This document shows, one piece after another, positions 1,903 to 25,847 of a DNA stretch of 64,000 bases; the stretch's first letter is position 1, and the number at the start of each line of letters is the position of its first letter. Both the position numbers and the translations under genes were made by a program. Source of the DNA: a virus. The notes beneath the pieces are model-generated. The model searched no databases. It was not told where the DNA came from and saw nothing but the letters and a program-made list of their open reading frames with translations. The stretch covers positions 64,001 through 128,000 of the IMG/VR virus record IMGVR_UViG_3300042874_000443; one strand, given 5' to 3'.

Positions 1903-3233
1903 GCGCGCTGCGCGGCGTCGATGCGACGGAACATGTCGCGGAGCGACGCCTCCTTCTTGTCGTCGTCCTTCTTCTCGTTCTTGTCGCCGCCGCCGTCCTT
2001 CTTGGCGTCGATCTTGTCTTGGATGAACGACGGGAGTCCGCCCTTGCTCTCGCCCTTGTCGTCGTCCTTCTTCTCGTCCTTCTTGTCGTCCTCCTTCTTC
2101 ATGAACGGCGGAAGGTCATCGGCCTGTTTGGTGCCCTGGTTGCCCGAGCGCCCGTCGTACGCACCGGGGCGCGAGTGCGTCGCCTCCGGGTTGTGCTCGT
2201 TGTAGTTGCTGCGCGAGCCGGGCGGCAGGTTCGCCGGCGCTGCTGCCGTGCGATCCGCTGCTTCCTTCTGCAGGCCGCGGAGGTAGTACGCCTTCTCCTC
2301 GGTGGTCAGGCCCATGCACGCGCGCACGGCCGCGATCTTGGCGTTCTCGTCGAGAGAGCCCGGCAGATACTCGTGCACCTCGGCCGCGACCTTCTTGAAG
2401 AGAGCGATGTACGGGTCTTCGGAAGCGGCCTTGCCCGAGTGCTCGGTGAGCGAGTTCGAACCGCCCGGCGTCTCGGCCGGCTTGTTCGGCTGCGGGGTCT
2501 CGCGACCGATCACGGCCGGACCCGTCACCTGCTTCATCATCTCGCCCAGGGCGCCCTGGTGCGGAAGAACGGCGTAGCCGGGCGGACGCTGCGAAGCGTC
2601 CATCTTCGCTTCGGCCGACGACATCTCCTTGTTGCCCTTGTCGCCGCCGAGGATGGTCGAACCCTCGGCCGACTTGCGGAAGAGGTCCGAGAGCGACGCG
2701 GTACGCGAGTGCTCCTGCACCGAGTTGTCCTTGGAGTCGGTCTCCTTCGGTTTGTTCGGCTGCTCTTCTTCCTTGCCGACCGCGCCCGGACGCGTGTCGA
2801 CATCGGTCTTGCCGAGGCTGTTCTCGGCGTAGCCCGGCGGACGCTGCGACGCGTCCATCTTGGTCTCACCCTGTGGCGATTCGCCTTCGGTGTTCCCCTT
2901 GTCGCCACCCTCGATGGTCGAGCCCTCGGCAGCCTTCGTCATGAGCTGCGTCGCGTTGTAGTCCGCGACCTTCATGACGTCGTCCCACGTCGCGAGCTTG
3001 TTCCACCCGGCAGCCTTGAAGCCCGGCTGCTTCTTGATCCAGTCCGAAGCGCTGACGAGGTCCGTCGCGATCTTGTGGGTCGTCTCGCGACCGACGCCCT
3101 TCAGCGGGTCGATGTCGACGCGCTCGGCGATGTAGTCCGCGACCTTCGCCGCAGTGGTCTCGTCAGGGAATGCGGCAATGCCGCCGTTGATTAACGCGGT
3201 CTGGATGCCTCGGACGTACGCGTGCTTGAACAT
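1899..3233 (-). CDS. Putative internal head/scaffold-like protein with two ~90-aa repeats (444 aa)
   Basis: Start reassigned to ATG 3233 (GAGGAG RBS); duplicated KxAEGSTIxGGDKGN...KMDASQRPPGYA...QPNKPxET...NSxxEHS block; many K-x-A motifs; charged tail. Confidence 0.7.
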   Translation of the reverse strand: MFKHAYVRGIQTALINGGIAAFPDETTAAKVADYIAERVDIDPLKGVGRETTHKIATDLVSASDWIKKQPGFKAAGWNKLATWDDVMKVADYNATQLMTKAAEGSTIEGGDKGNTEGESPQGETKMDASQRPPGYAENSLGKTDVDTRPGAVGKEEEQPNKPKETDSKDNSVQEHSRTASLSDLFRKSAEGSTILGGDKGNKEMSSAEAKMDASQRPPGYAVLPHQGALGEMMKQVTGPAVIGRETPQPNKPAETPGGSNSLTEHSGKAASEDPYIALFKKVAAEVHEYLPGSLDENAKIAAVRACMGLTTEEKAYYLRGLQKEAADRTAAAPANLPPGSRSNYNEHNPEATHSRPGAYDGRSGNQGTKQADDLPPFMKKEDDKKDEKKDDDKGESKGGLPSFIQDKIDAKKDGGGDKNEKKDDDKKEASLRDMFRRIDAAQRA

Positions 3234-3260
3234 GCAAGTCTCCTCGGGGGGAACGGTGGA

Positions 3261-3268
3261 ATGATAGG
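3261..3268 (-). promoter_or_regulatory. Variant of the CCTATAAT element (CCTATCAT)
   Basis: One mismatch to the motif; intergenic, upstream of RBS and ATG 3233. Confidence 0.4.
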
Positions 3269-3297
3269 ACGGGACGCTCAAATATCCAACGGTTGCA

Positions 3298-3510
3298 CTA
3301 ACCGAGTGCTTGGGCCTTCGAAGCGCCCGTCGCCATTGGTGGTGCGGATGAGGCTGGTGGAGCCATGGTCGATGCGGGCTGTGGTTGTGTTCCCACGGAA
3401 GCCTGCCCACCGAGCATGGGGTTGTAGCCGGCAGCGCCCTGCTGCATGTTGCCGAGCTTGAAGCGTGCGAACGCAGCAGCGCGTCCTCGGTTGTAGGCGT
3501 CGTTGATCAT
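3298..3510 (-). CDS. Small leader-motif protein (70 aa)
   Basis: MINDAYNRGRAAAFARFKLGN then Q/P/A/M-rich tail; ATGA overlap with upstream gene. Confidence 0.65.
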   Translation of the reverse strand: MINDAYNRGRAAAFARFKLGNMQQGAAGYNPMLGGQASVGTQPQPASTMAPPASSAPPMATGASKAQALG

Positions 3511-3965
3511 TGGAAGGGGTCCTGTGGTGGTTGTGGCGGTGGGGCGCTACCGAGTAGATGTCCGGCACCATGCCCGAGGCGGCCGCCGAGCGCAGCACCG
3601 AGAGGCATACCAAGCATGCCGCCCGCCATGCCGCCGTATGCACCGCCCGCGAGACGCCCAAGTGTTCCGAGCGCATGTGACGCGCGCCCTTCGTTCGGGT
3701 CTGGATTGGTTACCGCACGCATCGCCATCGGTACCATGGCGAGCGTTCCTGCACGACCAATCCAGTTACCGAACGTACCGTACTGTGATGGCCAGAACAC
3801 GTTCTTCCAATGCAACGCACCGCCTGGTGAGAATGCCTTGGGTCCTTGTACGAACGCACGACCTGCATCACCGATGAGCGACCGTTTGGCGAAGTCGACT
3901 ATCCCAGCCACCTTGAAGTGTGACAGGGCTGCGACTACGCCTTGTTCATGTGCCTTTGACAACAT
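3507..3965 (-). CDS. Leader-motif protein with glycine zipper (putative membrane-inserting virion protein)
   Basis: MLSKAHEQGVVAALSHFKVAG; C-terminal GxxxG repeats LGRLAGGAYGGMAGGMLGMPLGAALGGRLGHGAG. Confidence 0.7.
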   Translation of the reverse strand: MLSKAHEQGVVAALSHFKVAGIVDFAKRSLIGDAGRAFVQGPKAFSPGGALHWKNVFWPSQYGTFGNWIGRAGTLAMVPMAMRAVTNPDPNEGRASHALGTLGRLAGGAYGGMAGGMLGMPLGAALGGRLGHGAGHLLGSAPPPQPPQDPFQ

Positions 3966-5746
3966 CAGTACTGACCCTCTTCGCCAAGGCCAAATTCAGT
4001 GCCGGCAACATACGCTGGAACAGGTGACGCTCCATGCAGATTGGACACATCCCCTCGATGGATACCCGCCAGCAATGACTCTTTGAGATAGCGATGTGCG
4101 AGACGCGCCATCCAGTCAGGGTTGAGAAGAGGTGTGCGCGACGCTGGGCGCATCAACGGCGTGGCGCGTGGGCCATGCTCTGCAATCAACACGGACGTCA
4201 CACCGTTCCGGGTCAGTTGGTCCGCCATCGGTTGCGTCACAAGCGTGCCTGCCGTGTGGTGCAGTACATTGTCCGCTAACGTCTCGCCGACCGCGTCCGC
4301 CGTGGGGAGGCGCTTCTTGGAAGATGCGAGCGCAGCATGGAAGCGGTTGTAGTCGACGACGTCGCCCTTCAAGAACGCGTCGTGCGGCCCAGGGTCCACG
4401 ATCTGTACGTGGTTCAAGACCGACTTCGCAAGGGTCTCGAGGTGGCGCTTGTCGACCTCGGAGCCCGAGCGTTTGTAGACGTCAGACAACGCGTCGACGA
4501 GATAGCGACGTCCTTCACCGAGGCCCTTGTGCTGCACGACTTCATCGGGCTTGGGAACGCCATCGGAGAGCAGGTCGCCCGCGTACATCGACTGTCCGAC
4601 GTTCACGATGACCTTGTGTGTGGGTGCCACGTAGTGACTGCCGTCGTTGACGAAGACGTAGTGCCCACCTTGAGGCGCCTTGTCGATCTTGGTGATCGTA
4701 CCGTCTCGGTTCGCAAGGGTTGCCTTGTGTGCGAAGGCCGTCGGAATTTCGAGCAGAGACCGCACACCTTTGATGCCTTCGAGGCGTTTTTCATCGTCGA
4801 CACTGGCCACGCGTCCGCCGTGCTTGGCGTTCAGCGAGAACTGCGTCAAAGGCTCGGACAGCGCTTGCGCTGCACGCACTCCGACGTTCGTTCCGATCGA
4901 GTGCATCGCGCCCGAGGGGGACAAGCCCTGGCAGTGCTGACAAACACCGTGCGCGGCTTCGCACGTCATCGGTGACCGTACGACGACTTCTTTGCCCGTC
5001 TTAGCCAGGGTCGACGCGTACTGCGGCGTGATGAGTTTGTTCGTCTTTGCTTCGTAGCGGTCGATGATGTGCGCGTCCGTCGGAAGCATCGCCAGTCCGT
5101 TGTGCGTGCCGCAGTCGATCTTCGTGACGAGCTGATCCCCCATGTTGTTGACGAGGATCTTGGCGAGGTCGCCTGGTTCGACGACGGAGATGTTCGACAG
5201 CACGGCGTTGACGCGCGCTTCGCCCCCGGCGACCCATGCGTCAGCAGGCTTGAGGCCTTCGGAGAAACTGCGATCGATGAGCCACGGGACGATCTTGCCC
5301 TTGGAGTCGCGCGCGAAGACAGGCGCTCCGACTGTACGCATCAGCTGAGGTGCGTTGCCGCGTCCGCCCGACCGCACCATCTCGCCCATCGTGCCCGGGT
5401 GCTTTTTTGCGAGCGTGAGCATCGAGTCGAAAGCGCCGTTGAGCGCCTTGTCCTTGTCGACGGTGGTCGTCGCACGACGAAACGCTTCGACGTGCGGCTT
5501 CATGGCTGCATCGCGTGCCGCGGTGTGCGGTGCGATGTCGTCGAGCCCGACCGAGATGCCGTCGAGCGTTGCCGTCTCGTCGCCCAGGCGTTTGAGCTTG
5601 GTGACGATGTCGGGGTACTTGTGCGGGTCATCCTTGGCGATGCCGACAAGGGTCTCGTTCAACGATCCTTTGGTGAGCGCGCCACGCCCGCGCCACTTCG
5701 GTGGGAGGATCGAGTCGACGAGATGTTGGCCGAGCGTGGTGGCCAT
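3965..5746 (-). CDS. rpoC: DNA-directed RNA polymerase beta' subunit, C-terminal half (phage-encoded)
   Basis: Colinear with bacterial RpoC C-half: GISVGLDDI, MVRSGGRG, SFSEGL, DCGT, VRSPMTC...GVCQHCQG (Zn), trigger loop AAQALSEPLTQFSLNAKHGG, DKRHLE. Confidence 0.93.
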   Translation of the reverse strand: MATTLGQHLVDSILPPKWRGRGALTKGSLNETLVGIAKDDPHKYPDIVTKLKRLGDETATLDGISVGLDDIAPHTAARDAAMKPHVEAFRRATTTVDKDKALNGAFDSMLTLAKKHPGTMGEMVRSGGRGNAPQLMRTVGAPVFARDSKGKIVPWLIDRSFSEGLKPADAWVAGGEARVNAVLSNISVVEPGDLAKILVNNMGDQLVTKIDCGTHNGLAMLPTDAHIIDRYEAKTNKLITPQYASTLAKTGKEVVVRSPMTCEAAHGVCQHCQGLSPSGAMHSIGTNVGVRAAQALSEPLTQFSLNAKHGGRVASVDDEKRLEGIKGVRSLLEIPTAFAHKATLANRDGTITKIDKAPQGGHYVFVNDGSHYVAPTHKVIVNVGQSMYAGDLLSDGVPKPDEVVQHKGLGEGRRYLVDALSDVYKRSGSEVDKRHLETLAKSVLNHVQIVDPGPHDAFLKGDVVDYNRFHAALASSKKRLPTADAVGETLADNVLHHTAGTLVTQPMADQLTRNGVTSVLIAEHGPRATPLMRPASRTPLLNPDWMARLAHRYLKESLLAGIHRGDVSNLHGASPVPAYVAGTEFGLGEEGQY

Positions 5747-5747
5747 A

Positions 5748-6131
5748 TCACATCATGGGGTAGCCGCCGCCCGCGTTCATCATGGCGTGCTGGCGTGCCT
5801 GCTCTTCGCGCTTGGCCTGGTTGTGTCGGTGCAACATGTAGAGGCCGCCGCCGGCGAGTAGCGACGGTGCGAGCGTCTTGAGATTGCCGAGGGCGCCCGC
5901 ACGCGCGGCCGCACCAGCAGCAGCGTCTGGCGCTCCGCCGAGGCCTTGGTGCAGGTTGCCGAGTAGGCTCTTGCCCGCCTCGAGCTGACCCGACCCGAAC
6001 GCCTTGGCCCGATCCATGAGGCCAGCACCGGCCGCTGGCGCTGCTCCCATACCTGGAAGTGGGAGCTGGTTGGCGATCTTGAAACGCGCGAGCGCGTCGA
6101 AGTGTCCTTGGGCAACGTAGCGGTCGAGCAT
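5748..6131 (-). CDS. Small leader-motif protein with hydrophobic Gly-rich segment (127 aa)
   Basis: Start reassigned to ATG 6131 (TGATG overlap); MLDRYVAQGHFDALARFKIAN; LAPSLLAGGGLYML. Confidence 0.7.
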   Translation of the reverse strand: MLDRYVAQGHFDALARFKIANQLPLPGMGAAPAAGAGLMDRAKAFGSGQLEAGKSLLGNLHQGLGGAPDAAAGAAARAGALGNLKTLAPSLLAGGGLYMLHRHNQAKREEQARQHAMMNAGGGYPMM

Positions 6132-6607
6132 CAGACGCCTCCGAAACTGGTGTTCTGTCCCATATCGCTGAGCCGGTTGGCGGCATCGCCGCCGGCAAGG
6201 TTCGACGGCGCACCCCACGACGTGTTGCGGTCGAGAGGGTCACGCGCTGCGAGCTGATCGGCGGGCGCCATCGGAGCGTCGATCTCCTTGAGCAGATCGG
6301 CGAGGCTGTCCGCTGTTTCTTCGTTCGCGCGTTTGGCGTTTCGATCTGCTTCAGCCTTATGGGCTGCGTCGAAGCCGTGGAATGTGCGGCTCGGAATCTT
6401 CAGGCGCAGTTCCTCGGCGGCTTGCTTGAAACCGAATCGCTCGAGAGCATCGACGATGCCGAGTAGGTGCGACTTCTTCACGTGCTGCGGCAACTTCTTA
6501 CCCTTGGGAGTGGCGTCCTCCCACTCCTTGACGGTCTTGGAGCTGATCTCGCCGCGGTCTGCCATGGCGTAGAACTTCCCCCGTTGCGCTTGGGACTTGA
6601 AGGGCAC
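6131..6607 (-). CDS. Hypothetical phage protein with internal copy of the leader motif
   Basis: N-terminus MPFKSQAQRGKFYAM; internal SHLLGIVDALERFGFKQAA; preceded by CCTATAAT. Confidence 0.7.
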   Translation of the reverse strand: MPFKSQAQRGKFYAMADRGEISSKTVKEWEDATPKGKKLPQHVKKSHLLGIVDALERFGFKQAAEELRLKIPSRTFHGFDAAHKAEADRNAKRANEETADSLADLLKEIDAPMAPADQLAARDPLDRNTSWGAPSNLAGGDAANRLSDMGQNTSFGGV

Positions 6608-6612
6608 GCTCT

Positions 6613-6620
6613 ATTATAGG
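6613..6620 (-). promoter_or_regulatory. CCTATAAT promoter-like element
   Basis: Exact motif 5 nt before GTG 6607; overlaps the RNAP stop codon. Confidence 0.55.
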
Positions 6621-9600
6621 CGCGAGCCTTTGATTTCGATGGGATCGTTGAGCGCGATCTCGCCCCGGTGATAGGCAGCCATCGCTTCTTCCTGGGACTC
6701 GAAGTGCTTTGTTTTCTTGCTGGCGGGGGCCTGCGTCGCTCGATGGAGCCCGAGCAGGCTCTCCATCTCGGGCACGATGTTCAAGACGCCCGGACGCTTG
6801 TCCGCAAAGATCATGTGGGACAGCGTCATTTTCTTCACGTCTTCGATGCCGGCCGGCGTGACGGGCGCGTGGATCTGCATTGCGTCACCGTCGTAGTCCG
6901 CGTTGGTCCCCTTCTCCGCGAAGGGGTTGAGCTTGAGGGTCTTGCCTTCCACGATCTTCGGGTACGCACCGATGATGTTGAAGCGATGTAGCGACGGCGC
7001 CCGATTCACCATCACCGGCCGCTCCCGGGATTCGTTGACCAGCTCCTCGCGTGCGATGGGCTTGCGGTCGTCGACCATCTTCTGCGCGTCGGTTGCGGTG
7101 TACCCGCGACGCACGAGGCGTCCGATCACGAACTTACCGTACATCCCCCAGAGCATTCCTTCGGGCACGCCGATCTCATCCATCGACAACGTCGGATCTG
7201 GCGCGATCGTCGCGCGCCCGCTGACGTCCTGTTGGCGCTTCATCAAACGCGATTGGAAGAAGCCGCTGCCCGGACGTGTGCCGGTGATCGCCGCGAGGTA
7301 TCCCTTCGCCCCGCGCTTCTCGGCACCAGGGCTGACAGGGTCACCGACGCCGTAGAGCGCGCTCACCGCGTCGTAGAGATGTTGGCGTGGCGCCGGATGT
7401 TCGGCGGAGGGCAAGCTCTTCGTCGCGTCCTTGAGCTGGTTGTTGGCGAGGAACGCATCCTTATAGAGAAGGTTCGCGTCGCTGACCTGCAGGCGCCCAT
7501 CCTTGAGCGGCAAGATGGGACGGATGATCGGCGGCGTGACGGGAACCTTCGTGATGACGTAGGCGTCCGCTGGTTTGAGGTTCTTCTCCTTGAGCGCCTC
7601 GAGATACTTGATCTGCTTCACTACGCCGTCGAGCGTGGGGCCGCGGGCCTTCTTCGACTGCGTGTGCAGATCCTTCAGCTTGTCGTCGACGTTGATCTCG
7701 CCGAGCGCCGACTTGAACCACGCACCGCCCTTACCGACGTGTGTCGTGAACTCCTTCTGTGTGAGGCCAAGGAGACGGCGGACAGGTTCTTCGAACACTG
7801 GGTTGACGATCGGTTCGTGAAGGTCGACGTGTGTCCACTTCGTGCCTGACATACCGCCCGTCATGCCGGGGTCGAAGAGCCCTCCGACTTCGGGACGCAG
7901 GTCCTTTGCACGGATCAGACGGCTGGGGTCCTTGAGCGCGCCTGACGACATCGACTTCACGTCGGCGTCCGTGAGGGGGCCGAGCGAGAGACGCGAGCCC
8001 GCCTTCGACACTTTCACACCAGCGCCGGTGAGCATGCTCTGCAGCTTCTCGTAGGCGAACGGAGTTTTGGGTGCAGGCGTCGGCAACCCGAGCTGCACCG
8101 CACGCCAGAACTCGTCGTTGCGTTGGCTCTTGATGGACGCAGCTTCACGCAGCACGTTGCGCGCGTTGTGCGCGACGAGCCCATCGAATTCCATCTTGCC
8201 GATGCCCTTGGCGCCCTCATCACCACCGCGCGCGGGCTGCTGGTTGTAGTCGTACCGCTCGGCGCCGTGCGCCGCCCAGTTCGAGTCCGTCGTCTTGAAG
8301 AGCTTGAGGATGTAGCTCTTGCCGACGACGACGTTGGGGATCTTCTTGCCGGTGATCGGGTCGAGCACGGTCTCTTTGTCGGAGAGGCCGTGTTCGTCGA
8401 GCAGCTTCTTTGCGAAGGCGACGTTGTCGCGGCCCGGCGTGTATTGCGGAACGACGATAGGCTTCCCGATCTTCTCTGCGACTTTGCCCAGCGCCGTCTC
8501 GACGATCTGTGCGGGGTTGATGCGCGAGACGACACCCGCGGACGTGAACAACAGATCGATCGGACGTCCTTGCGCGTCATGCACCATCTGGTGGTCGGGG
8601 ACGATCTTCGCGATGACGCCCTTGTTGCCGAATCGGTTGGAGAGCTTGTCTCCGATCTGCAGTGCTTCTTGTGTTCGAACCGACGCAGCTGCGTGCTTCG
8701 CTGTTTTCGCGATGTCGATGACAGTGCCCGGTCGGTCGTGGTCCCACGTCGCGATGACTTCTTCGTAGGGTTTGATGAGCGCCTTGGACAGCTTGCCGAG
8801 AAGCGCGGCGTCGCCCGTCGCCTTGTTTTCTCGAACGCCCACGATGATCGGGTCGCCCGGATGAAGCGTCACACCGTGCTTGACCACGCCGTCGTCGTCG
8901 AGCTTGTCGTACTGCTCCTTCGTGTACCGACTGCCGAAGTACGATCGATGACGCTCACGTCCGAGCTGCGTGTCGCCCTCACGTGACACCGCGTGCTGGT
9001 ACATGTGCTCGCTCGTCAGCTTGTCCGCCGCGCCTTGCGAAACGACGATACCGTCGTTGGTGTTGAGGCCGCGGTACGGCATGTACGCCACGCTCAAGTT
9101 CGTGCCGAGCGCGAGCGCCCCGCCCTTGGTGAAGTTGCTCTCGGCGAGCGGCTGGTTCTTCTTGACGGTATCGCCCACCTTCACGGTCAGCGTGTTGTGC
9201 AGCGCTGTCTTGGCTGCTAGCGGGAAGTCCTGATCGTAGTGGTGGCGCGAGTTTTCGGCTCCCGTCTTTGCGTGGTGCCCGACGTGGATGTAGTCGCCGT
9301 CGATCTTCGTGATGACGCCGTCGTGACGCGCAGTCGGCACGAGCAACTGCACCATGTCCTGTTCGACGGACGAACCGGGGTTCCATGATGCGACCTGAAC
9401 CAGTGGCGCTTCGCGATGGGTGAGCGGTAGCGCCTGTCCTTGATGCTTGCTCGCCATCAGCACACGGTTGCCCTGGATGCCGTAGACGAAGGGCAACAGG
9501 TTTGACGTCGGTCCGTACTGGTCAGCAACGTGTTCGATCTGATGTGTCACCTTGTCCGCAGACACGCGCGACACCACCCCGTGCGCCATCGCATCGACCA

Positions 9601-10975
9601 TCTTGCCGGGCTTCACGACTTCGCCGGGGAAGGCGATGACCGACGCAGCCATGTCGCCCGCCTTGAGGTAGGTCGGACGTCCCGTCTTCACGTCGATGAC
9701 GGGGGCGTAGAGGTTGCCCTTGTCGTCACGGCGCGCGCCGATCGCTGCGCGTAGGTCGACACCGATCTTGAAGCTCTCAGGACTGCGCGCGGGGTCGAGG
9801 ATGCCCAGGTGCGTCGGGTGAACATCGCGAGCCTCGAGCGGGATGGCGCGGTCGGATGCGATGGCTCCTTCGCCGAGCATTGTGACGCGCGACGCTTCGT
9901 CGAGCAGTTCCATTGGATTGATCTGCATCGGGACCGCGCTGAGGGAACTGCCTGTGAGCAGTCCATGCATCGAGCGCGTGAAGGGGCCCGCAGGCAACGC
10001 CTTCTTGATGTCGCCGTGGCTGGCGTCCAGTTTCCAGCCCAGCTTGGCTTTCATCGCGCGCGCCTCGAGCGCAACACGTTCCTTGACGAAGTCGTCCACC
10101 GAGTGGAACGTCTTGAACGCGAGCGAATCTCGGTCGTCGACGTCCGCAGCTGTCTTGTGTACGTCGAGCAGCTTCTTGGACGCAGCAAGGATGGCAGCGG
10201 GCGACGCCTTCTCGTAGGGGTACCCGAGCGTGTGGTGCGTGACCGCGGGGTCCATCGAGGTGTTGTCGAAGTACTCACGCAACACACGCGACTTCTCGTC
10301 CGTCGTTGTCGCGGTTTGCTTGGCTGGATGCACCAGCGTTTCGTACAGCTTGTCGACGTGCTTGTCGGGGTTCTTCCACGCGTCTCGATTCATCGACGCG
10401 ATCTCGGGGCCCCAGTTCGTTGCGATGTCTTGGTGCGGGATACCGAGCGCACGCAAGACAGGGTGCAGTGGGATCTTCGATGTTGTGTGCGACGGTTGCA
10501 TGTAAAGGAGCCCCTTCTCGGGGTCCATCGACATGCGAAAGTTCGCGCCCTTCGCTAGGTTGAACGTTGCCTCCAGTTCTTCATTGCCGCGCCGACGGAT
10601 GTACGCACCCGGTTTGGTACGAATCTGGTTGGAGACTGAGTACTCCGTCCCATCGAGAATGAACGTGTGTCGAGGCGTGAAGTACGGCAACTGAAGAAGC
10701 GTGAAGTCTTTGGCGTGGTTGACGGTGCTGCCGCTTGCGTCCTTGACCGTCAGGTCTCCACGTACCCGCTCCGCGAGCGTCTTGCCCTCGAGCACCGCGT
10801 GTTTCTGTTCACGCGACGAGAACTCTTTGGGTTCGACACGGACGTTCGTCAGCTCGAGGGTGTGCTTGCCCGCCTTGAGCGGGAACGCTTGCTCGAGGCC
10901 TTCGACGACCTTCTTGCGGATCATCTCGCGACGCGTGGCCGCGTCTTCGAGAACGGGTCGTAGATTCGGCAGCAT
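6614..10975 (-). CDS. rpoBC: Fused RNA polymerase beta + beta' N-terminal half (catalytic subunit)
   Basis: Beta motifs RDVHPTH, GDKLSNRFGNKGVI, SRINPAQ, QQPARGG...GKMEFDGL; then beta' motifs GGLFD, VPVTPPIIRP, DVSGRATI, NRAPSLHR and catalytic NADYDGD (6884-6904). Confidence 0.95.
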   Translation of the reverse strand: MLPNLRPVLEDAATRREMIRKKVVEGLEQAFPLKAGKHTLELTNVRVEPKEFSSREQKHAVLEGKTLAERVRGDLTVKDASGSTVNHAKDFTLLQLPYFTPRHTFILDGTEYSVSNQIRTKPGAYIRRRGNEELEATFNLAKGANFRMSMDPEKGLLYMQPSHTTSKIPLHPVLRALGIPHQDIATNWGPEIASMNRDAWKNPDKHVDKLYETLVHPAKQTATTTDEKSRVLREYFDNTSMDPAVTHHTLGYPYEKASPAAILAASKKLLDVHKTAADVDDRDSLAFKTFHSVDDFVKERVALEARAMKAKLGWKLDASHGDIKKALPAGPFTRSMHGLLTGSSLSAVPMQINPMELLDEASRVTMLGEGAIASDRAIPLEARDVHPTHLGILDPARSPESFKIGVDLRAAIGARRDDKGNLYAPVIDVKTGRPTYLKAGDMAASVIAFPGEVVKPGKMVDAMAHGVVSRVSADKVTHQIEHVADQYGPTSNLLPFVYGIQGNRVLMASKHQGQALPLTHREAPLVQVASWNPGSSVEQDMVQLLVPTARHDGVITKIDGDYIHVGHHAKTGAENSRHHYDQDFPLAAKTALHNTLTVKVGDTVKKNQPLAESNFTKGGALALGTNLSVAYMPYRGLNTNDGIVVSQGAADKLTSEHMYQHAVSREGDTQLGRERHRSYFGSRYTKEQYDKLDDDGVVKHGVTLHPGDPIIVGVRENKATGDAALLGKLSKALIKPYEEVIATWDHDRPGTVIDIAKTAKHAAASVRTQEALQIGDKLSNRFGNKGVIAKIVPDHQMVHDAQGRPIDLLFTSAGVVSRINPAQIVETALGKVAEKIGKPIVVPQYTPGRDNVAFAKKLLDEHGLSDKETVLDPITGKKIPNVVVGKSYILKLFKTTDSNWAAHGAERYDYNQQPARGGDEGAKGIGKMEFDGLVAHNARNVLREAASIKSQRNDEFWRAVQLGLPTPAPKTPFAYEKLQSMLTGAGVKVSKAGSRLSLGPLTDADVKSMSSGALKDPSRLIRAKDLRPEVGGLFDPGMTGGMSGTKWTHVDLHEPIVNPVFEEPVRRLLGLTQKEFTTHVGKGGAWFKSALGEINVDDKLKDLHTQSKKARGPTLDGVVKQIKYLEALKEKNLKPADAYVITKVPVTPPIIRPILPLKDGRLQVSDANLLYKDAFLANNQLKDATKSLPSAEHPAPRQHLYDAVSALYGVGDPVSPGAEKRGAKGYLAAITGTRPGSGFFQSRLMKRQQDVSGRATIAPDPTLSMDEIGVPEGMLWGMYGKFVIGRLVRRGYTATDAQKMVDDRKPIAREELVNESRERPVMVNRAPSLHRFNIIGAYPKIVEGKTLKLNPFAEKGTNADYDGDAMQIHAPVTPAGIEDVKKMTLSHMIFADKRPGVLNIVPEMESLLGLHRATQAPASKKTKHFESQEEAMAAYHRGEIALNDPIEIKGSRL

Positions 10976-10992
10976 TTTGGTACAAGACTCCG

Positions 10993-11370
10993 TTAGGGCA
11001 GCCGTCGCGGTCGTTCGACAGGTTCAGCATCGCCCGCGTCTTGGTCGTTCGCCGGCGCCGGACGTGTTCGCGGCGTCAGGTAGACCAACGCCACCATGAA
11101 GTCGCCTTCCTTGGTGAACGTGCGGTCTTCGTAGCGCATTACAGCTTCGCCGCGCAGCACTTGGTTCATGACGTCTTCGTAGGCCTCGCGGTCTGCGGGA
11201 AGCGCGTAGACCTCGGAGTGCGCTTCGAAGTCCAGGTCAGGCCCGCCGCGGTTGACGCGCGGCTCGAACGCCGTCCTCCCTGGGCCGTTGCTGAACAGAC
11301 TGCCGATGTCGTTGCTGACCTTCTGCGCGCGTTCGACGACGGCCGCGAAGTCTTCTGATTCTTGGGGCAT
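10993..11370 (-). CDS. Hypothetical protein between portal and RNAP
   Basis: AGGA RBS; coherent 125-aa ORF in operon context. Confidence 0.7.
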   Translation of the reverse strand: MPQESEDFAAVVERAQKVSNDIGSLFSNGPGRTAFEPRVNRGGPDLDFEAHSEVYALPADREAYEDVMNQVLRGEAVMRYEDRTFTKEGDFMVALVYLTPRTRPAPANDQDAGDAEPVERPRRLP

Positions 11371-11381
11371 GGTTTATCCTA

Positions 11382-13184
11382 TCAACCTACCGCCGGAGGT
11401 CCAGCGGGGGGCGCACCGCCCGTACCACCAGACGGGTCGCCGCCCTGGCGCGACATCGCGATGGCCTGCTGATTCATCTGCGTGGTCTGGTCGTGCAGAC
11501 GTTCCTTCACGACGGCGTACATCACCATGTCTTCGGTCTGCAACGCGTGCATCTGCGACTGGCGCGTGCCGGGGTCGAGGCCCATCAGCTGTTGAACAAG
11601 CTGGTCTGCCTGCGCGATGACAGCCTGCTGGTCGTACGACAACCCTTGCTGCCCCATCTGCGCTTGCGCGCGTGCGCGAGCGCCCAGATCGTTCTGGCGT
11701 TTCTGCATCTCGATCTGCAGCTCTTGCGCGACGCGCGCGTCGTCGAGCGCTTCCTGCATGCGCCACTTCCGCTCGTCGGAGGGGTCGATGTTGAACGTCT
11801 CGCCCATCGTTCGCTTGGAGATCCAGGGTCCTGTCGTTGGGTCTGCGCCGTTGAGCTGGAGGAGCAGCGCCTTCTGTTGCACGTCGTCGATGAAGCGGAA
11901 GGGCGCGAGCGTGACCACGACGGTGCCGCGTCCGAGTTGTTTGGCGGCCTTGTCCGTGACCCACTGCAGGAGGTCGTTGAGGTCACCCGTCTGATGGACG
12001 AGCTGGTTCTCGAGCACACGGAGCTGGATGCCTGAGCCCATCGCCGAGAAGCCGCCGTAGATGAACTCCTTGGGTAGCCCCATCGCCGCGATGATGTTGT
12101 CCTCGGCCGCCTGGACTTCGCCGAGCGTCATGAGCGCGCGGGCCTGACCGCCGAGGTGCGTGACCTCCGCAGGGACTGGCGACCACATGATGTGCAGCGG
12201 GTCGCGGCGCCACTTCTTGACGCTGCTCTTCATCTCGTCTGACCACTTCGCCAGCGAGATCGTCGTCATCGGGTCGGCGTTCGCCGTCGACTGCTTCGGC
12301 GAGATGATGCGCAGCGGGACGATGTAGTCGAGCGCGATCGCTTCGTTCGCCTTGCGGAGCACCGCTGCGTAGAAGAACAGCTTGATCGTCGACGCCAGCG
12401 GCGGAAAGCCCCACTGGGCCTCGATGCCCGCAGGTGCGTCCATGCGCATGTGGAAGACCTGACCCTCGGCGAACTTGAAGATCTTGTCTTCGCGGATCGC
12501 TTCCAAGAACTCCATCGGCATCGTGTCGATGAGGTGCTTGTTCCCCTTGGCGCAGCGTTCCTTAATCTCCTTGGGGATCGTGTAGTAGTACTCGCTGTGC
12601 CCGGTGATGGGGTTGTAGTCGATGTCCATCAACTTCGGGTCCCAGCGGATCACCGAGATGCGGTCCTTGCGCGTGATCTTGCGGTCGACGATGTTCTTCG
12701 CACCGACGTCGACGCGCGTCTTGCAGCCACTGCACTCGTAGTTGAAGGCCAGCTTCTTGAGTTTGAACTTGTAGGTGATCTGCTGGATGTTCGTCAGCGT
12801 CTGGCAACGCGGGCACTTCAGGAAGCGCACGAACGGCGAGTACATCGAGAAGAACGCGTTGCCGTAGACGAACTTGTCAACGGCCGCACGGATCAAGATG
12901 CGCTTGGTCTTGAGCGTCTTGTTGTGGAGGTCCTCGTAGTATTCCTTGAGCGCTTCGTTCTGCGTCTCGTAGACGATGTCCGTGACGGGGTACGTGCAGA
13001 ACTTCTGCAGCGCCGCGTAGATCTGCGAGCTGTTGAAGTAGAGGTATTCGCAGAGGCGGAAGAGGTCCTTCAGCTTCCGGGGCGCGAACGCCGTGAGGAA
13101 GTCGAAGAGCGGGCTGCCGTGCGAAGACACGTTGTGCGTCGCGAGATCAGCGACCCCGGGGTCGAACATTCCATCAGCGGCCAT
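11382..13184 (-). CDS. Portal protein (with Zn-ribbon insertion)
   Basis: FVYGNAF, WGFPPL, IIAAMGLPKEFIYGG are portal-like; CPRC...CSGC insertion; Q/M-rich tail; GAGG RBS. Confidence 0.75.
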   Translation of the reverse strand: MAADGMFDPGVADLATHNVSSHGSPLFDFLTAFAPRKLKDLFRLCEYLYFNSSQIYAALQKFCTYPVTDIVYETQNEALKEYYEDLHNKTLKTKRILIRAAVDKFVYGNAFFSMYSPFVRFLKCPRCQTLTNIQQITYKFKLKKLAFNYECSGCKTRVDVGAKNIVDRKITRKDRISVIRWDPKLMDIDYNPITGHSEYYYTIPKEIKERCAKGNKHLIDTMPMEFLEAIREDKIFKFAEGQVFHMRMDAPAGIEAQWGFPPLASTIKLFFYAAVLRKANEAIALDYIVPLRIISPKQSTANADPMTTISLAKWSDEMKSSVKKWRRDPLHIMWSPVPAEVTHLGGQARALMTLGEVQAAEDNIIAAMGLPKEFIYGGFSAMGSGIQLRVLENQLVHQTGDLNDLLQWVTDKAAKQLGRGTVVVTLAPFRFIDDVQQKALLLQLNGADPTTGPWISKRTMGETFNIDPSDERKWRMQEALDDARVAQELQIEMQKRQNDLGARARAQAQMGQQGLSYDQQAVIAQADQLVQQLMGLDPGTRQSQMHALQTEDMVMYAVVKERLHDQTTQMNQQAIAMSRQGGDPSGGTGGAPPAGPPAVG

Positions 13185-15599: not shown

Positions 15600-16510
15600 C
15601 AACTGGAATGGAAGAGGTCGAAGCGTTTCTCGACCCCGATATCGAAGTGCCGCCGGACGTCGAACCCGAACTGATCGACATCTTGCCTCGCGGCTACCTC
15701 TCACCATCGCAAGTCGCGATGTTCCTCAAGTGTCCCAAGTCGTGGGAGCTGGCCTACCTGCAGCACAAGCCCCGCCGTACCGTCGCGCGTATGTTCCAAG
15801 GGATACAGGTCCACAACGCCGTCGAGAAGGTGCTCAAGGGGCGGCTCGAAACGGGCATCCTGCCGTCGCAGGAGATGGCGACGGACGCGTACTCCGACTC
15901 GTTCAACGAAACGAAGAAGCTCATCGAGGACTGGGAGGGTGAAGACGAAGGCGCGGTCAAGGACACCGGCGTGAAGTGCACCAAGGCGTACTACGACGAA
16001 GCCGCACCTGATGCGACGCCGATCGAAGTCGAAAAGACCTTCCACGCGGTGTTCCGTACGTCCGACGGCAAGATCAAGCTGCCGGTACTAGGACGCATCG
16101 ATAGCATCCAGGTGCAGTCGCACACCGAACAGGAGTACCAGGACATCCGAGAAGCGCTCGCGTCGAAGACGCCGAAGAAGCCCAAGCGCGTACATGATCT
16201 GAAGGTGGTCACGGACAAGTGGTCCGAGAGCGACCTGGCCAATGACCTGCAGTTCGCAATCTACGCGGGCGTCGAGCACGTCCCTGATGTGCAGGTCGAT
16301 CAGGTCGTCAAGGGGCGTGCGAAGGTGCCACGTCCTCGCTATGAAAAGCTGACGGGCGTCATCACGGACAAGATGGTCAAGCACGCCGAAGAGGTGGTCG
16401 TGGGCGTGGCGAAGTCCATCGCGTTGGGACACTTCCCGATGACCGATCCCTCCAACTGGTGGTGCGGTGAGAAGTGGTGCTCCATGTGGCGCCATTGCCG
16501 TGGCAAGTAG
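15596..16510 (+). CDS. PD-(D/E)XK nuclease, RecB/Cas4-like
   Basis: LSPSQ...KCP, GRID, HDLK, QFAIY, C-terminal CxxxWCxxWxxC. Confidence 0.85.
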   Translation: MTTGMEEVEAFLDPDIEVPPDVEPELIDILPRGYLSPSQVAMFLKCPKSWELAYLQHKPRRTVARMFQGIQVHNAVEKVLKGRLETGILPSQEMATDAYSDSFNETKKLIEDWEGEDEGAVKDTGVKCTKAYYDEAAPDATPIEVEKTFHAVFRTSDGKIKLPVLGRIDSIQVQSHTEQEYQDIREALASKTPKKPKRVHDLKVVTDKWSESDLANDLQFAIYAGVEHVPDVQVDQVVKGRAKVPRPRYEKLTGVITDKMVKHAEEVVVGVAKSIALGHFPMTDPSNWWCGEKWCSMWRHCRGK

Positions 16511-16546
16511 TGGACGCGTGAATCGCGTGCGTGCTACGAGAGGTTT

Positions 16547-16903
16547 ATGACGCAAGCACACGCGAACCAGAAGCCCACCAACCTCGGCGCGCAAGCGGCC
16601 GCTGCTGCAACCACGGGCGGCACCGCCAAGCCGTCGGACGCCAAGACCGATGCCAAGACCGACGCCAAGCCGGCACCGACGCCGCGCAAGAAGGCTGCGG
16701 ACATGACGCCGGCGGAGAAGGAAGCAGCCAAGGCAGAGCGTCTGGCGAAGGCCAAGAAGGTCTTCATCGTCGTGGGCACGGTCCACGAGTTCGACTCGGT
16801 CAACAAGGCCGAGAAGTTCCTCAACGCCGCGGACTCCCCTGCGGAGTACACCGCGATCCGCGGCCTCCGAATCGGCACCAGCAAGAAGGTCTCCCTGCGC
16901 TAG
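16547..16903 (+). CDS. Lys/Ala-rich hypothetical protein
   Basis: GAGG RBS; DAKT repeats; typical codon use. Confidence 0.7.
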   Translation: MTQAHANQKPTNLGAQAAAAATTGGTAKPSDAKTDAKTDAKPAPTPRKKAADMTPAEKEAAKAERLAKAKKVFIVVGTVHEFDSVNKAEKFLNAADSPAEYTAIRGLRIGTSKKVSLR

Positions 16904-16912
16904 AGTAGCGAC

Positions 16913-17071
16913 ATGGAGAAATTTGGCGTTGACGTAGAGCCCGAAGCCACCAAGACTGCCGCCGCGAAGGCCCACCCGACATGCCCGTCTTGCGACCAAC
17001 CGTTGCTGAAAAACGCCAACGTTCCAACATGCCCGCGATGCGGAACCAAACCGTTCGAGCCAAAGGAATGA
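16913..17071 (+). CDS. Small Zn-ribbon protein (52 aa)
   Basis: Manual translation MEKFGVDVEPEATKTAAAKAHPTCPSCDQPLLKNANVPTCPRCGTKPFEPKE; stop overlaps next ATG; not in track. Confidence 0.7.
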   Translation: MEKFGVDVEPEATKTAAAKAHPTCPSCDQPLLKNANVPTCPRCGTKPFEPKE

Positions 17072-18454: not shown

Positions 18455-18889
18455 GTGCCTGTCTGTTCTGCCTGCAAACGTCCCAAGCGAAAGGATCAGT
18501 TCCACTTCGCCAACAAGGCGCGTGGCGAGCGGCACCGCAAATGTAAGACCTGCGCTTGCAAAACAGCGCATCAGTACTACCGAGACAATCGTGACGCTGT
18601 TTTAGTGACAGTCGCCCGACGAACTGTTCGTCGGAAACGTGAATGGCAGCAATGGATCGACGGTCTCAAGGACGCACCTTGTCTTGATTGCGGTGGGCGC
18701 TTTCCAAGCTACTGCATGGACTTCGACCACTGCAGAGGCGGAGCCAAGCGCTATTCAATCTCGGAACTGACGTCTAACCGTCTTTGGTCAAAGACACGCA
18801 TCTTGACGGAAATCGCAAAGTGCGATCTCGTGTGTGCAAACTGCCATCGGATCCGTACACACAAACGACGCAAGACGCACAAGTATTAG
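18455..18889 (+). CDS. Free-standing HNH endonuclease
   Basis: CLDCG...MDFDH...EIAKCDLVCANCHRIRT; N-terminal CxxC pairs; more AT-rich. Confidence 0.82.
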   Translation: MPVCSACKRPKRKDQFHFANKARGERHRKCKTCACKTAHQYYRDNRDAVLVTVARRTVRRKREWQQWIDGLKDAPCLDCGGRFPSYCMDFDHCRGGAKRYSISELTSNRLWSKTRILTEIAKCDLVCANCHRIRTHKRRKTHKY

Positions 18890-19677
18890 AGGTACGCGTC
18901 TTCGGTCGAAAGGCCGACACGCGTCTTCAGCTCGTTGTGCAGGAGCTGCATGCCGTTGATCTTGATCTGCCGCACGCGTTCGGGGCACATGCCCATGATG
19001 GCGGCGATCTGCACGAGGTTGCGCGCGTCGTCCTTGACGCCGTAGTAGAGGTTCAACACCGTCTGCTCGCGTGGCGGTAGCCGATCGATTCCTTCACGCA
19101 CGATGGCGCGGAGACGTTCGGCGCCGTAACACGATGTCGGCTCGGCATCGACCACGTCGGGTGTGTGGCGAGCTGCATCGATCGGCATGACGATCCCTTC
19201 AGGGAGTCCGGGGTCCATCGCCATGACCGACTTGCTCTCGGGGCCGTGTTCTTGAACAGCCGCTCGAAACTCCCGCGCCTGCCGGCGCTGTGCTTTCTGT
19301 CGGTGGGCAGGGACGTGGACGAGCGACGCGGTCGTGTAGTCCTGGTTCGACATCTCTTCGTAGATCCACCAGCCGGCGTACGTCAGGAAACGGATGTACG
19401 GCTTGCGTGCCCCGTCGAACTTGTCGGCGGCCTTGAGCAACCCGAGGTTGCCGGCGGCGATGAAGTCCTTGACGGCCTCGGGATCCTTGGTGCGCTTGTG
19501 CGCCATCTTCACGACGAAACGTAGATGGGTTTGCACGATGGCGTCGCGCGCCTTCACGTCCCCTTGCTGTTGCCAGCGACGGATCAGACGTTTTTCTTCC
19601 GCCGCGTCCTCTACGAGAGGGGTGCGTGCGATCTCCGAGTAGTACATCGAAGCGACACGCATCTGGGTTGCAACCAT
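18886..19677 (-). CDS. Sigma-70 family factor, RpoH/RpoS-like
   Basis: Start reassigned to ATG 19677; region 1.2 YYSEIARTPL; region 2 HLRFVV...GNLGLLKAADKFD...FLTYAGWWI; region 4 LPPREQTVL...ERVRQI. Confidence 0.92.
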   Translation of the reverse strand: MVATQMRVASMYYSEIARTPLVEDAAEEKRLIRRWQQQGDVKARDAIVQTHLRFVVKMAHKRTKDPEAVKDFIAAGNLGLLKAADKFDGARKPYIRFLTYAGWWIYEEMSNQDYTTASLVHVPAHRQKAQRRQAREFRAAVQEHGPESKSVMAMDPGLPEGIVMPIDAARHTPDVVDAEPTSCYGAERLRAIVREGIDRLPPREQTVLNLYYGVKDDARNLVQIAAIMGMCPERVRQIKINGMQLLHNELKTRVGLSTEDAYL

Positions 19678-19700
19678 GGTTACGGACAACCTACCAAGCG

Positions 19701-19716
19701 TTGATCGACTGATCAA
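19701..19716. promoter_or_regulatory. Palindrome TTGATC-N4-GATCAA (possible operator)
   Basis: Perfect 6-bp inverted repeat in the divergent sigma/SSB intergenic region. Confidence 0.3.
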
Positions 19717-19871
19717 ATAGTTACGCGTATGGCCACTACCTGTGGGGGCCTCGATCTCGTTTCGTACCCCAGGAATAGCGCCAAGATTTTTCGGATCACG
19801 ATGCTTGCCAAACAAACATGCCGGTCACTAGAGTGGCCCTCCACCTTCACTGCATTCCAAAGGAAAGTGAC

Positions 19872-25466: not shown

Positions 25467-25847
25467 ATGTTTATGGAATCGACATCCTCAGACCTTGTAC
25501 GCGCCTTAACACAGGCTTTGCACGCTCAAAACGACGCTCTGAAGGCGCTGAACCTACTGCCATACGGCATGCATCGGGACGATGACCACGTGTTCGACCC
25601 GTTGAATGATGTAGATGTTTCCTACGTGTTGTACAACGAAGGTGTTATGGATGCCTCAACAGGCAAACGTGTTATTCGACACGGTCCTTGGTTGGAGCGT
25701 TCGGTTAAGACCGGGCGCTTCAGTACAGACACCTCAACGCTTGCCGCGATTGTCGAGAAGACGGCGTGCCATGTAGCCGCTGCCATCTTGAACTATCGCA
25801 TAACACATGCCGCGCTCATGGCAGCGCACAAGGCGACCGGTGGTTGA
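25467..25847 (+). CDS. Hypothetical protein
   Basis: Fills the gap between primase and polymerase; more AT-rich. Confidence 0.55.
   Translation: MFMESTSSDLVRALTQALHAQNDALKALNLLPYGMHRDDDHVFDPLNDVDVSYVLYNEGVMDASTGKRVIRHGPWLERSVKTGRFSTDTSTLAAIVEKTACHVAAAILNYRITHAALMAAHKATGG

Follow-up and report, generated by a model that had tools for sequence, protein, structure and literature searches.

In cellular RNA polymerases, an alpha dimer is needed to join beta and beta'. In Helicobacter and Wolbachia, beta is joined in frame to a whole beta' in RpoBC proteins (NF007172, NF011417) of ~2840-2890 amino acids (aa), and these enzymes have alpha and omega, bacterial insertions and the zinc-binding domain. 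In cyanobacteria and plastids, beta is encoded by a separate gene, and a cut that falls past the catalytic barrel and ahead of the bridge helix divides beta' into gamma (RpoC1) and beta'' (RpoC2, ~1230-1350 aa with a large insertion). The phiKZ/AR9-type enzymes are phage-encoded, lack alpha and omega, and come in virion-packaged and non-virion sets without a sigma homologue; their beta' is split past the barrel and their beta into two or three chains that are never fused to beta' (PMC7824862, PMC7598289). Compact polymerases that are clearly homologous to cellular beta and beta' were also reported from a deep-branching lineage of tailed phages (mReC), in which every entry of Supplementary Data 2 has a beta of ~900-1560 aa and a separate beta' of ~900-1390 aa (PMC7481178, Weinheimer and Aylward 2020). 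Here we describe the RNA polymerase genes in a 64,000-nucleotide stretch, hereafter the window, which comprises bases 64001-128000 of the 157,408-bp IMG/VR virus record IMGVR_UViG_3300042874_000443. The record is estimated to be 84% complete, the window has a GC content of ~61%, and the source is an uncultured phage with a genome of ~160-190 kb. The window encodes beta and the N-terminal part of beta' as one chain (P0001) and the C-terminal part of beta' as another (P0002).

We assign a probability of roughly 0.68 to the reading that this is a two-chain minimal polymerase, split from a single-chain ancestor and probably packaged in the virion. Together, the two chains would make up a minimal RNA polymerase of the bacterial type that is complete and catalytically competent, with both catalytic barrels in chain 1 (beta::beta'N, 1453 aa) and the bridge helix, trigger loop, second zinc site and C-terminal region in chain 2 (beta'C, 593 aa). 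They would rejoin non-covalently across the surface loop at about E. coli beta' 555-571, and the fusion of beta to beta' may stand in for the alpha-dimer assembly scaffold. The ancestor would be a single-chain beta::beta' of ~2050 aa that survives in basal relatives. One split, at the loop just before the TTxGR motif, would have given the clade of the window phage, Salmonella phage Arash and Vibrio phages D69, D148 and D181, with other genes inserted between the halves after the split. The enzyme would be packaged in the virion and start early transcription, perhaps with a phage sigma-70-type factor.

Two polymerase chains and their family

The polymerase features, in nucleotides (nt) of the window, were as follows.

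6614-10975 (-): P0001, beta + beta'N, single open frame of 1453 codons
7997..10975 (-): beta part, P0001 residues 1-993; Pfam Rpb2_2/3/6, PDB beta chains at E 3e-70, column conservation in 123 members
8615-8635 (-): RFGNKGV with the beta double-psi barrel lysines K777 and K785; column conservation
6614..7996 (-): beta'N part, P0001 residues 994-1453 plus stop codon; Pfam Rpb1_1/Rpb1_2
3965..5746 (-): P0002, C-terminal beta', 593 aa; Pfam Rpb1_5 (Rpb1 domain 5)
5141-5248 (-): bridge helix, P0002 residues 167-202; a 36-residue helix in the model
4931-5116 (-): second zinc site, P0002 C212/C262/C269/C272; motif positions
4787-4885 (-): trigger loop, P0002 residues 288-320; helix-loop-helix from motif and model

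Pfam placed Rpb2 domains 2, 3 and 6 at residues 139-908 of P0001 and Rpb1 domains 1 and 2 at residues 1104-1383. When solved bacterial chains were searched with phmmer, P0001 matched beta (E 3e-70) and beta' (E 6e-45) and P0002 matched beta' (E 4e-37), values that exclude chance. The best PDB match for the beta part was the cyanobacterial beta chain 8gzg_C, which matched residues 92-1019 at E 3e-70, and residues 1088-1445 aligned to E. coli beta' 186-547. The beta part ends GAGVKVSKAG (residues 984-993, nt 7997-8026) and is followed directly by SRLSLGPLTDADV (residues 994-1006, nt 7958-7996), which places the beta/beta' junction at residue 993/994, nt 7996/7997. In an alignment of 123 family members with beta plus beta' of E. 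coli, Acinetobacter and Staphylococcus, the junction had no linker, and the last beta strand (E. coli ...GINIELEDE) entered beta' at about E. coli residue 20. The catalytic residues R678, D814, K1065, K1073 and R1106 of beta and R425, D460 and D462 of beta' (E. coli numbering) were invariant in the 123 members. The NADYDGD motif lies at residues 1358-1364 (nt 6884-6904), with aspartates D1360, D1362 and D1364, and the clamp helices lie within beta'N at residues 1155-1187. The beta' zinc-binding domain, ~32 residues that in E. coli hold C70, C72, C85 and C88, is deleted at P0001 ~1044 (nt 7835-7858); its columns were gaps in P0001 and in 120 of the 123 members. An AlphaFold model of P0001 560-1453, built from a 35-sequence family alignment, had a mean predicted local distance difference test score (pLDDT) of 86.8 and a predicted template-modelling score (pTM) of 0.78. 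The junction was folded in this model (pLDDT 75-95), and both halves matched bacterial beta and beta' chains.

P0001 ends IEIKGSRL, 89 residues past NADYDGD and opposite E. coli beta' ~546-554, and the second chain, which begins MATTLGQHLVDSILP, opens with MATTLGQHL. In E. coli numbering, the break falls between ARVKVRITE (546-554) and TTVGRAIL (572-579), a surface loop in E. coli. Residues 123-316 of P0002 matched E. coli beta' 725-943 and residues 341-472 the region past the trigger loop. The trigger loop has a flexible tip at 309-318 and the conserved histidine H309, and a C-terminal AGTEFG motif is the counterpart of E. coli IPAGTG. The AlphaFold model of P0002 (pLDDT 82, pTM 0.71) matched bacterial beta' in Foldseek at E 5e-31 and TM scores of 0.6-0.67.

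A preliminary description of this DNA, made from the sequence alone, had stated that beta runs straight into beta' near 8000, that the chain stops after NADYDGD, that beta' resumes two genes later, and that both barrels share one polypeptide and leave the bridge helix and trigger loop to the other. All of this stands, with K777/K785 and D1360/D1362/D1364 in P0001 and with open reading frames (ORFs) 6131-6607(-) and 5748-6218(-) between the two genes. Domain mapping with profile hidden Markov models and structure prediction, which it had named as checks, agree, in that Rpb2 and Rpb1 domains were found in P0001 and Rpb1_5 in P0002, and that confident models of both chains matched bacterial beta and beta'. 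It was also right in placing the cyanobacterial split slightly downstream of this one: the last residue of P0001 is opposite ~557-563 of the 619-625-residue gamma (~557/619 of the rpoC1_cyan profile). The two breaks lie in the same surface region at different sites, with gamma running ~60 residues past the end of P0001. At the other side of the break, P0002 residue 45 aligned with RpoC2 residue 36, so that P0002 starts ~9 residues ahead of RpoC2, and at 593 aa it is far shorter than RpoC2.

The comparison with the other described systems gave further differences. NF007172 was the best NCBIfam match of P0001, yet at 351 bits against a cut-off of 5372, and NF011417 gave 300 bits against 4632, and P0001 is thus a member of neither family. 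The phage enzyme is ~800 residues shorter than the RpoBC proteins of Helicobacter and Wolbachia and is split again. In contrast to the phiKZ/AR9-type enzymes, the window has an intact beta fused to beta' and a sigma-70-family gene, with one polymerase set in the whole record. PHROG matches to phiKZ/AR9-type families reached 1e-12 to 1e-23 compared with 3e-68 for cellular-like families, and the phiKZ/AR9-type beta' break lies ~35-60 residues upstream of that in the window, as judged from profile end-points.

The layout was found in many other phages. A word-indexed search over the junction region gave >120 clusters at >=65% identity on contigs of up to 197 kb, all of which carry Rpb2 and Rpb1 domains. 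A HMMER search with P0001 residues 700-1453 gave at least 150 representatives of 50%-identity clusters, reaching down to 37% identity (E 1e-149), and nearly all matched across the junction in one stretch. Taken together, the same junction was present in >260 independently assembled proteins, and the layout is the commonest of a very large phage family. Among cultured phages it was found in Salmonella phage Arash (gp206, 1525 aa, and gp216; OQ632216.1; PMC10585845) and in Vibrio phages D69, D148 and D181. These resemble the window in 35% identity over 99% of P0001, a portal gene upstream, a beta'C gene downstream and a sigma-family gene, and they differ in their hosts, which are Enterobacteria and Vibrio, the window coming from a 61% GC environmental phage. 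In the Arash record and paper, the proteins are named simply beta and beta', and the fusion and the split are not mentioned (PMC10585845). The jumbo-phage analysis by Iyer et al. and a 2026 jumbo-phage review do not describe the layout (PMC7824862, PMC13282480). In the full-text literature, with subscription journals mostly outside its scope, we found no beta::beta' phage polymerase of this type and no split derivative of one. The preliminary description had called the combination unknown to it; this holds for the published descriptions searched, but the combination is not unique to this contig and is present, uncommented, in GenBank isolates.

Single-chain relatives

When 269 collected proteins were scored, 211 ended where P0001 ends and 46 continued as single chains. 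Of the collected representatives, about a quarter were single chains. The single-chain forms are ~2000-2080 aa long, and longer where insertions are present. They belong to the same family as the window enzyme (P0193, P0167 and P0180, for example, at 37-43% identity) and share the linker-less junction, the deletion of the zinc-binding domain and the upstream portal gene; their beta' is continuous, whereas that of the window is broken before TTLGQ. The two proteins of the window aligned end to end on these relatives, with P0002 residues 2-4 placed 1-4 residues after the last residue of P0001. In local alignment, the single-chain forms read ...V.V.G..-TT.GR... unbroken across the split site.

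A FastTree phylogeny (LG+gamma) of 126 beta + beta'N sequences over 1421 columns, rooted on E. coli, Acinetobacter and Staphylococcus, placed the single-chain forms at the base as a paraphyletic series of at least five successive lineages. All split forms, among them Arash, Vibrio phage D69 and the window, formed one clade with a support of 0.994-0.998. In a second FastTree phylogeny of 18 sequences over 1881 columns of whole beta + beta', to which two enzymes of mReC-type architecture were added, the split clade had a support of 1.0 and was nested among single-chain forms. The bacterial and the mReC-type outgroups both attached among single-chain forms. Because the split forms are monophyletic and the single-chain forms basal in the rooted trees, the split would most simply be a single derived event. 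The preliminary description had missed both the single-chain relatives and the derived state of the split. P0211 was considered as a split form basal to the split clade and was rejected, since its gene is cut by the contig end and has an Rpb1_4 domain; it is a truncated single-chain form.

Insertions recur in relatives of P0001. Six of them (P0013, P0032, P0053, P0078, P0083 and P0088) carry ~130 aa with GNAT acetyltransferase domains (PF00583, PF13508, PF13673) in the beta part, at the position of P0001 ~571. Three fixed positions repeatedly carry insertions of 340-600 aa, namely P0001 ~1365 (P0115, P0116, P0171, P0207, P0208, P0238), ~779 (P0037, P0066, P0075, P0094) and ~400 (P0011, P0019, P0094, P0078). 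Two of these sites abut catalytic motifs, one just past NADxDGD and the other at the GNKG lysines. A LAGLIDADG domain (PF14528) in P0115 and P0116 makes it probable that the 340-600 aa insertions are inteins. The fused gene of Vibrio phages D181 and D148 is interrupted by a homing endonuclease.

Virion status, neighbouring genes and competing readings

The genes around the polymerase are those of a tailed phage and include a portal-like protein, a SNF2 helicase, a PD-(D/E)XK nuclease and a sigma-70-family factor, with a primase, a family A DNA polymerase with a uracil-DNA glycosylase (UDG) domain, a large terminase and a ribonucleotide reductase nearby. The neighbouring features that bear on the polymerase were as follows.

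18886..19815 (-): sigma-70-family factor, 309 aa, candidate promoter-specificity subunit; Pfam Sigma70_r2 + r4, PHROG sigma 6e-34
11382..13184 (-): portal-like protein, 600 aa; 30% identity, E 3e-95 to the Arash gp204 portal
10993..11370 (-): small ORF, 125 aa, between the portal and polymerase genes; ORF list and synteny
6131..6607 (-): P0004, intervening gene 1, 158 aa; translation, counterpart in L005
5748..6218 (-): P0003, intervening gene 2, glycine/alanine-rich; translation

In the window, the portal-like gene precedes the polymerase gene and has the same orientation. A portal-like gene is likewise upstream in Arash, in D69, in L005 (a relative with a fused polymerase gene 65% identical to that of the window) and in a phage with a single-chain form (L009). 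The window protein was 29% identical (E 1e-92) to the product of the gene directly upstream of the single-chain form in L009, and Arash gp204 matched the PHROG portal family at 4e-7. One small gene, the ORF at 10993..11370, sits between the portal-like and polymerase genes of the window; it had no family match in Pfam and PHROG searches, and Arash and D69 have a small ORF at the same spot. Promoter and terminator scans gave only background levels.

The window enzyme is probably packaged in the virion, where it would start early transcription; this is argued from homology to Arash and from the conserved position beside the portal gene. By mass spectrometry of an Arash virion preparation, gp206 gave the most spectra of any protein (3516, with 100% coverage and 128 unique peptides), exceeding those of the major capsid protein, and gp216 (1210 spectra) and the sigma factor gp10 were detected as well (PMC10585845). 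No match to alpha (PF01000, PF01193) or omega (PF01192) was found in the 157-kb record, which is 84% complete, and the same profiles matched in all 14 control genomes. We infer that the polymerase does without alpha. A sigma-70-type factor of the phage may be its partner; the window sigma is RpoS/RpoH-like by NCBIfam, and Arash and D69 each have a Pfam-detectable sigma.

Several points weigh against this reading. The Arash virion preparation also held ribonucleotide reductases and RNA ligases, and its authors noted that abundant infection proteins were possibly carried over (PMC10585845), so that packaging is unproven in Arash and is extrapolated to the window. No capsid-targeting leader was seen by eye on P0001 or P0002. 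On sequence grounds, the enzyme might still draw on host alpha. The window sigma had no pairwise similarity to Arash gp10 and orthology of the two is not established, and no Pfam-detectable sigma was found in G002, a 93%-complete family member; because of this, the sigma dependence of the enzyme is uncertain. In the trees, the bacterial outgroup branch is long (1.44 substitutions/site), and long-branch attraction could have shifted the root and, with it, the direction of change; both trees were made with FastTree only, under the LG+gamma model. A candidate leader at the N-terminus of P0001 (GLEQAFP...KAG) was rejected, as by eye it aligned with the ordinary beta motif GLEAAFRSVFP.

An alternative is that the polymerase stays outside the virion and is produced only once infection has begun, to serve middle or late genes, and that its detection in Arash particles was carry-over, which we regard as unlikely though a serious contender. 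Carry-over was raised by the Arash authors themselves, metabolic enzymes were present in the same particles (PMC10585845), and neither chain has a recognisable packaging leader. Moreover, one polymerase set was found in the record of the window as in each genome checked, so that the enzyme must serve later phases too, unless the host enzyme takes over. Carry-over has to account, however, for a spectral count of gp206 that was the highest of all and above that of the major capsid protein, and for a polymerase gene that has kept its place beside the portal gene even in deep family branches.

That the two-chain layout is ancestral and the single chains arose by secondary fusion of beta'C onto beta::beta'N appears improbable. 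It draws on the long outgroup branch on which the rooting leans, and fusion by loss of the intervening DNA would be mechanistically easy. Against it stand the attachment of both outgroups among single-chain forms and the contrast between one well-supported split clade and at least five successive basal single-chain lineages, and an ancestral split would demand repeated precise fusions at the same residue. The content between the halves also varies within the split clade, which fits insertion after the break. Two small ORFs separate the genes in the window and likewise in L005, as against nine genes in Arash and nine in L010, a basal split lineage; those of L010 include a SNF2 helicase and a response-regulator/GGDEF gene.

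Of the two intervening genes in the window, P0004 was 33% identical (E 2e-19) to the ORF at the same position in L005 and had a weak PHROG match to a virion structural protein (E 0.0098). P0003 had no family match in Pfam and PHROG searches and no significant similarity to the ORF at its position in L005; its coding region probably starts downstream of 6130, given the overlap of the listed start with P0004. An amphipathic motif of the G-x3-A-L-x-R-F type was seen in P0004 (~45-62, LLGIVDALERFGF) and in P0003 (~33-48, AQGHFDALARFKI). The L005 homologue of P0004 starts at such a motif, and the N-terminal segment KSQAQRGKFYAMADRGEIS of P0004 is not in that homologue. In L010, the response-regulator/GGDEF gene (diguanylate cyclase) lies at 16056-16958 between the polymerase genes.

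The preliminary description had suggested that the enzyme may belong to the mReC lineage and so share a phage ancestor with the deep-branching Caudovirales polymerases. This membership is not supported, and we hold it to be slightly more doubtful even than an ancestral split. It is in its favour that this is a tailed-phage multisubunit polymerase, detectable by cellular profiles, of a size near that of mReC type b (beta ~1010 aa, beta' ~915 aa). In the published mReC entries, on the other hand, beta and beta' are always encoded separately, each product being >=800 aa long. The filter of that survey, which asked for a beta' of >=800 aa with NADxDGD (PMC7481178), is built in such a way that this family could not pass it, as P0001 carries NADYDGD together with beta and the separate beta' chain, P0002, has 593 aa. 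A scan of IMG/VR with back-translated NADFDGD, in which the recovered set is a sample, gave among the matches listed compact beta' genes next to beta at mReC type b sizes, in L095 (1010/915 aa) and L082. These two were called mReC-type by architecture only, namely a beta of ~1010-1023 aa beside a beta' of 915-933 aa. The beta'N of the window scored 149-156 bits against bacterial beta' and 51-72 bits against the beta' of L095 and L082, mReC-type by that architecture, and over 1881 trimmed columns the window enzyme was 26-27% identical to the bacterial and 20-22% to the L095 and L082 enzymes. The tree of family, bacteria and mReC-type enzymes has three groups, is unrooted and cannot test sisterhood. 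Enzymes of the phiKZ and mReC types are clearly more distant from bacterial enzymes than this family is.

The same IMG/VR scan gave loci in which a NADFDGD ORF ends 9-26 residues past the motif (L026, L028, L029, L049, L051, L059, L064, L068, L086 and L090), and giant-virus GVMAG records are among them (L026, L028, L059, L068, L086). Such ends suggest that, directly at the active site, the largest subunit is broken in a different way or is interrupted by an intron or intein.

Finally, an artefact (mis-assembly, a frameshift, or halves rejoined by an intron or split intein) has a probability close to nil, and the layout of P0001 and P0002 is not one, because it is shared by >260 independent proteins from hundreds of assemblies and by four cultured phage genomes, an Rfam scan of 3000-12000 at E up to 0.1 found no intron, ribozyme or other RNA family, gp206 of Arash had 100% peptide coverage, the halves end and begin exactly at homologous residues with no room for intein fragments, and the intervening DNA of other members holds ordinary genes, including a SNF2 helicase.

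Two side observations follow. The family A DNA polymerase (window 25807-28803(+), 998 aa) has a UDG-superfamily domain at N-terminal residues 58-213, which precedes the 3'-5' exonuclease and polymerase domains. A fragment of a fused-polymerase gene with 86% identity to that of the window is present on L013 (JBAPOI010000909.1, 1886 bp), a contig binned in a soil metagenome-assembled genome of Candidatus Sulfotelmatobacter (Acidobacteriota), which is a weak hint of habitat or host; as evidence for this host it was rejected, since the binned contig is only 1.9 kb.

Meaning for phage polymerases

Judged by its sequence, the enzyme is a real, well-conserved and catalytically intact two-chain polymerase, unremarked in databases and in cultured phages. 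The alpha scaffold was apparently replaced by a covalent link, ~700-800 residues and the zinc domain were trimmed, and the chain was recut at a surface loop, near where cyanobacteria and jumbo phages cut beta'. We tentatively propose, at somewhat less than even odds, a very large, hitherto undescribed lineage of tailed phages with an enzyme free of alpha, omega and the zinc domain, first a single chain of ~2050 residues and then split, delivered by the virion and programmable by sigma. If this is true, no smaller self-sufficient polymerase of the cellular type would be known, and the enzyme would show, as an experiment of nature, how subunit fusion can replace assembly factors.

The finding is of interest to those who study how polymerases are built and how they evolved. 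Structural and synthetic-biology work would gain a compact bacterial-type polymerase of one or two chains, which may be orthogonal, with its own sigma. The family would offer a clean, polarised case in which the genes for a core information-processing enzyme were first fused and then split, and a marker for a large phage clade outside the reach of the mReC survey filters. It also bears on the origin of phage polymerases, either as ancient relics or as bacterial enzymes that became reduced.

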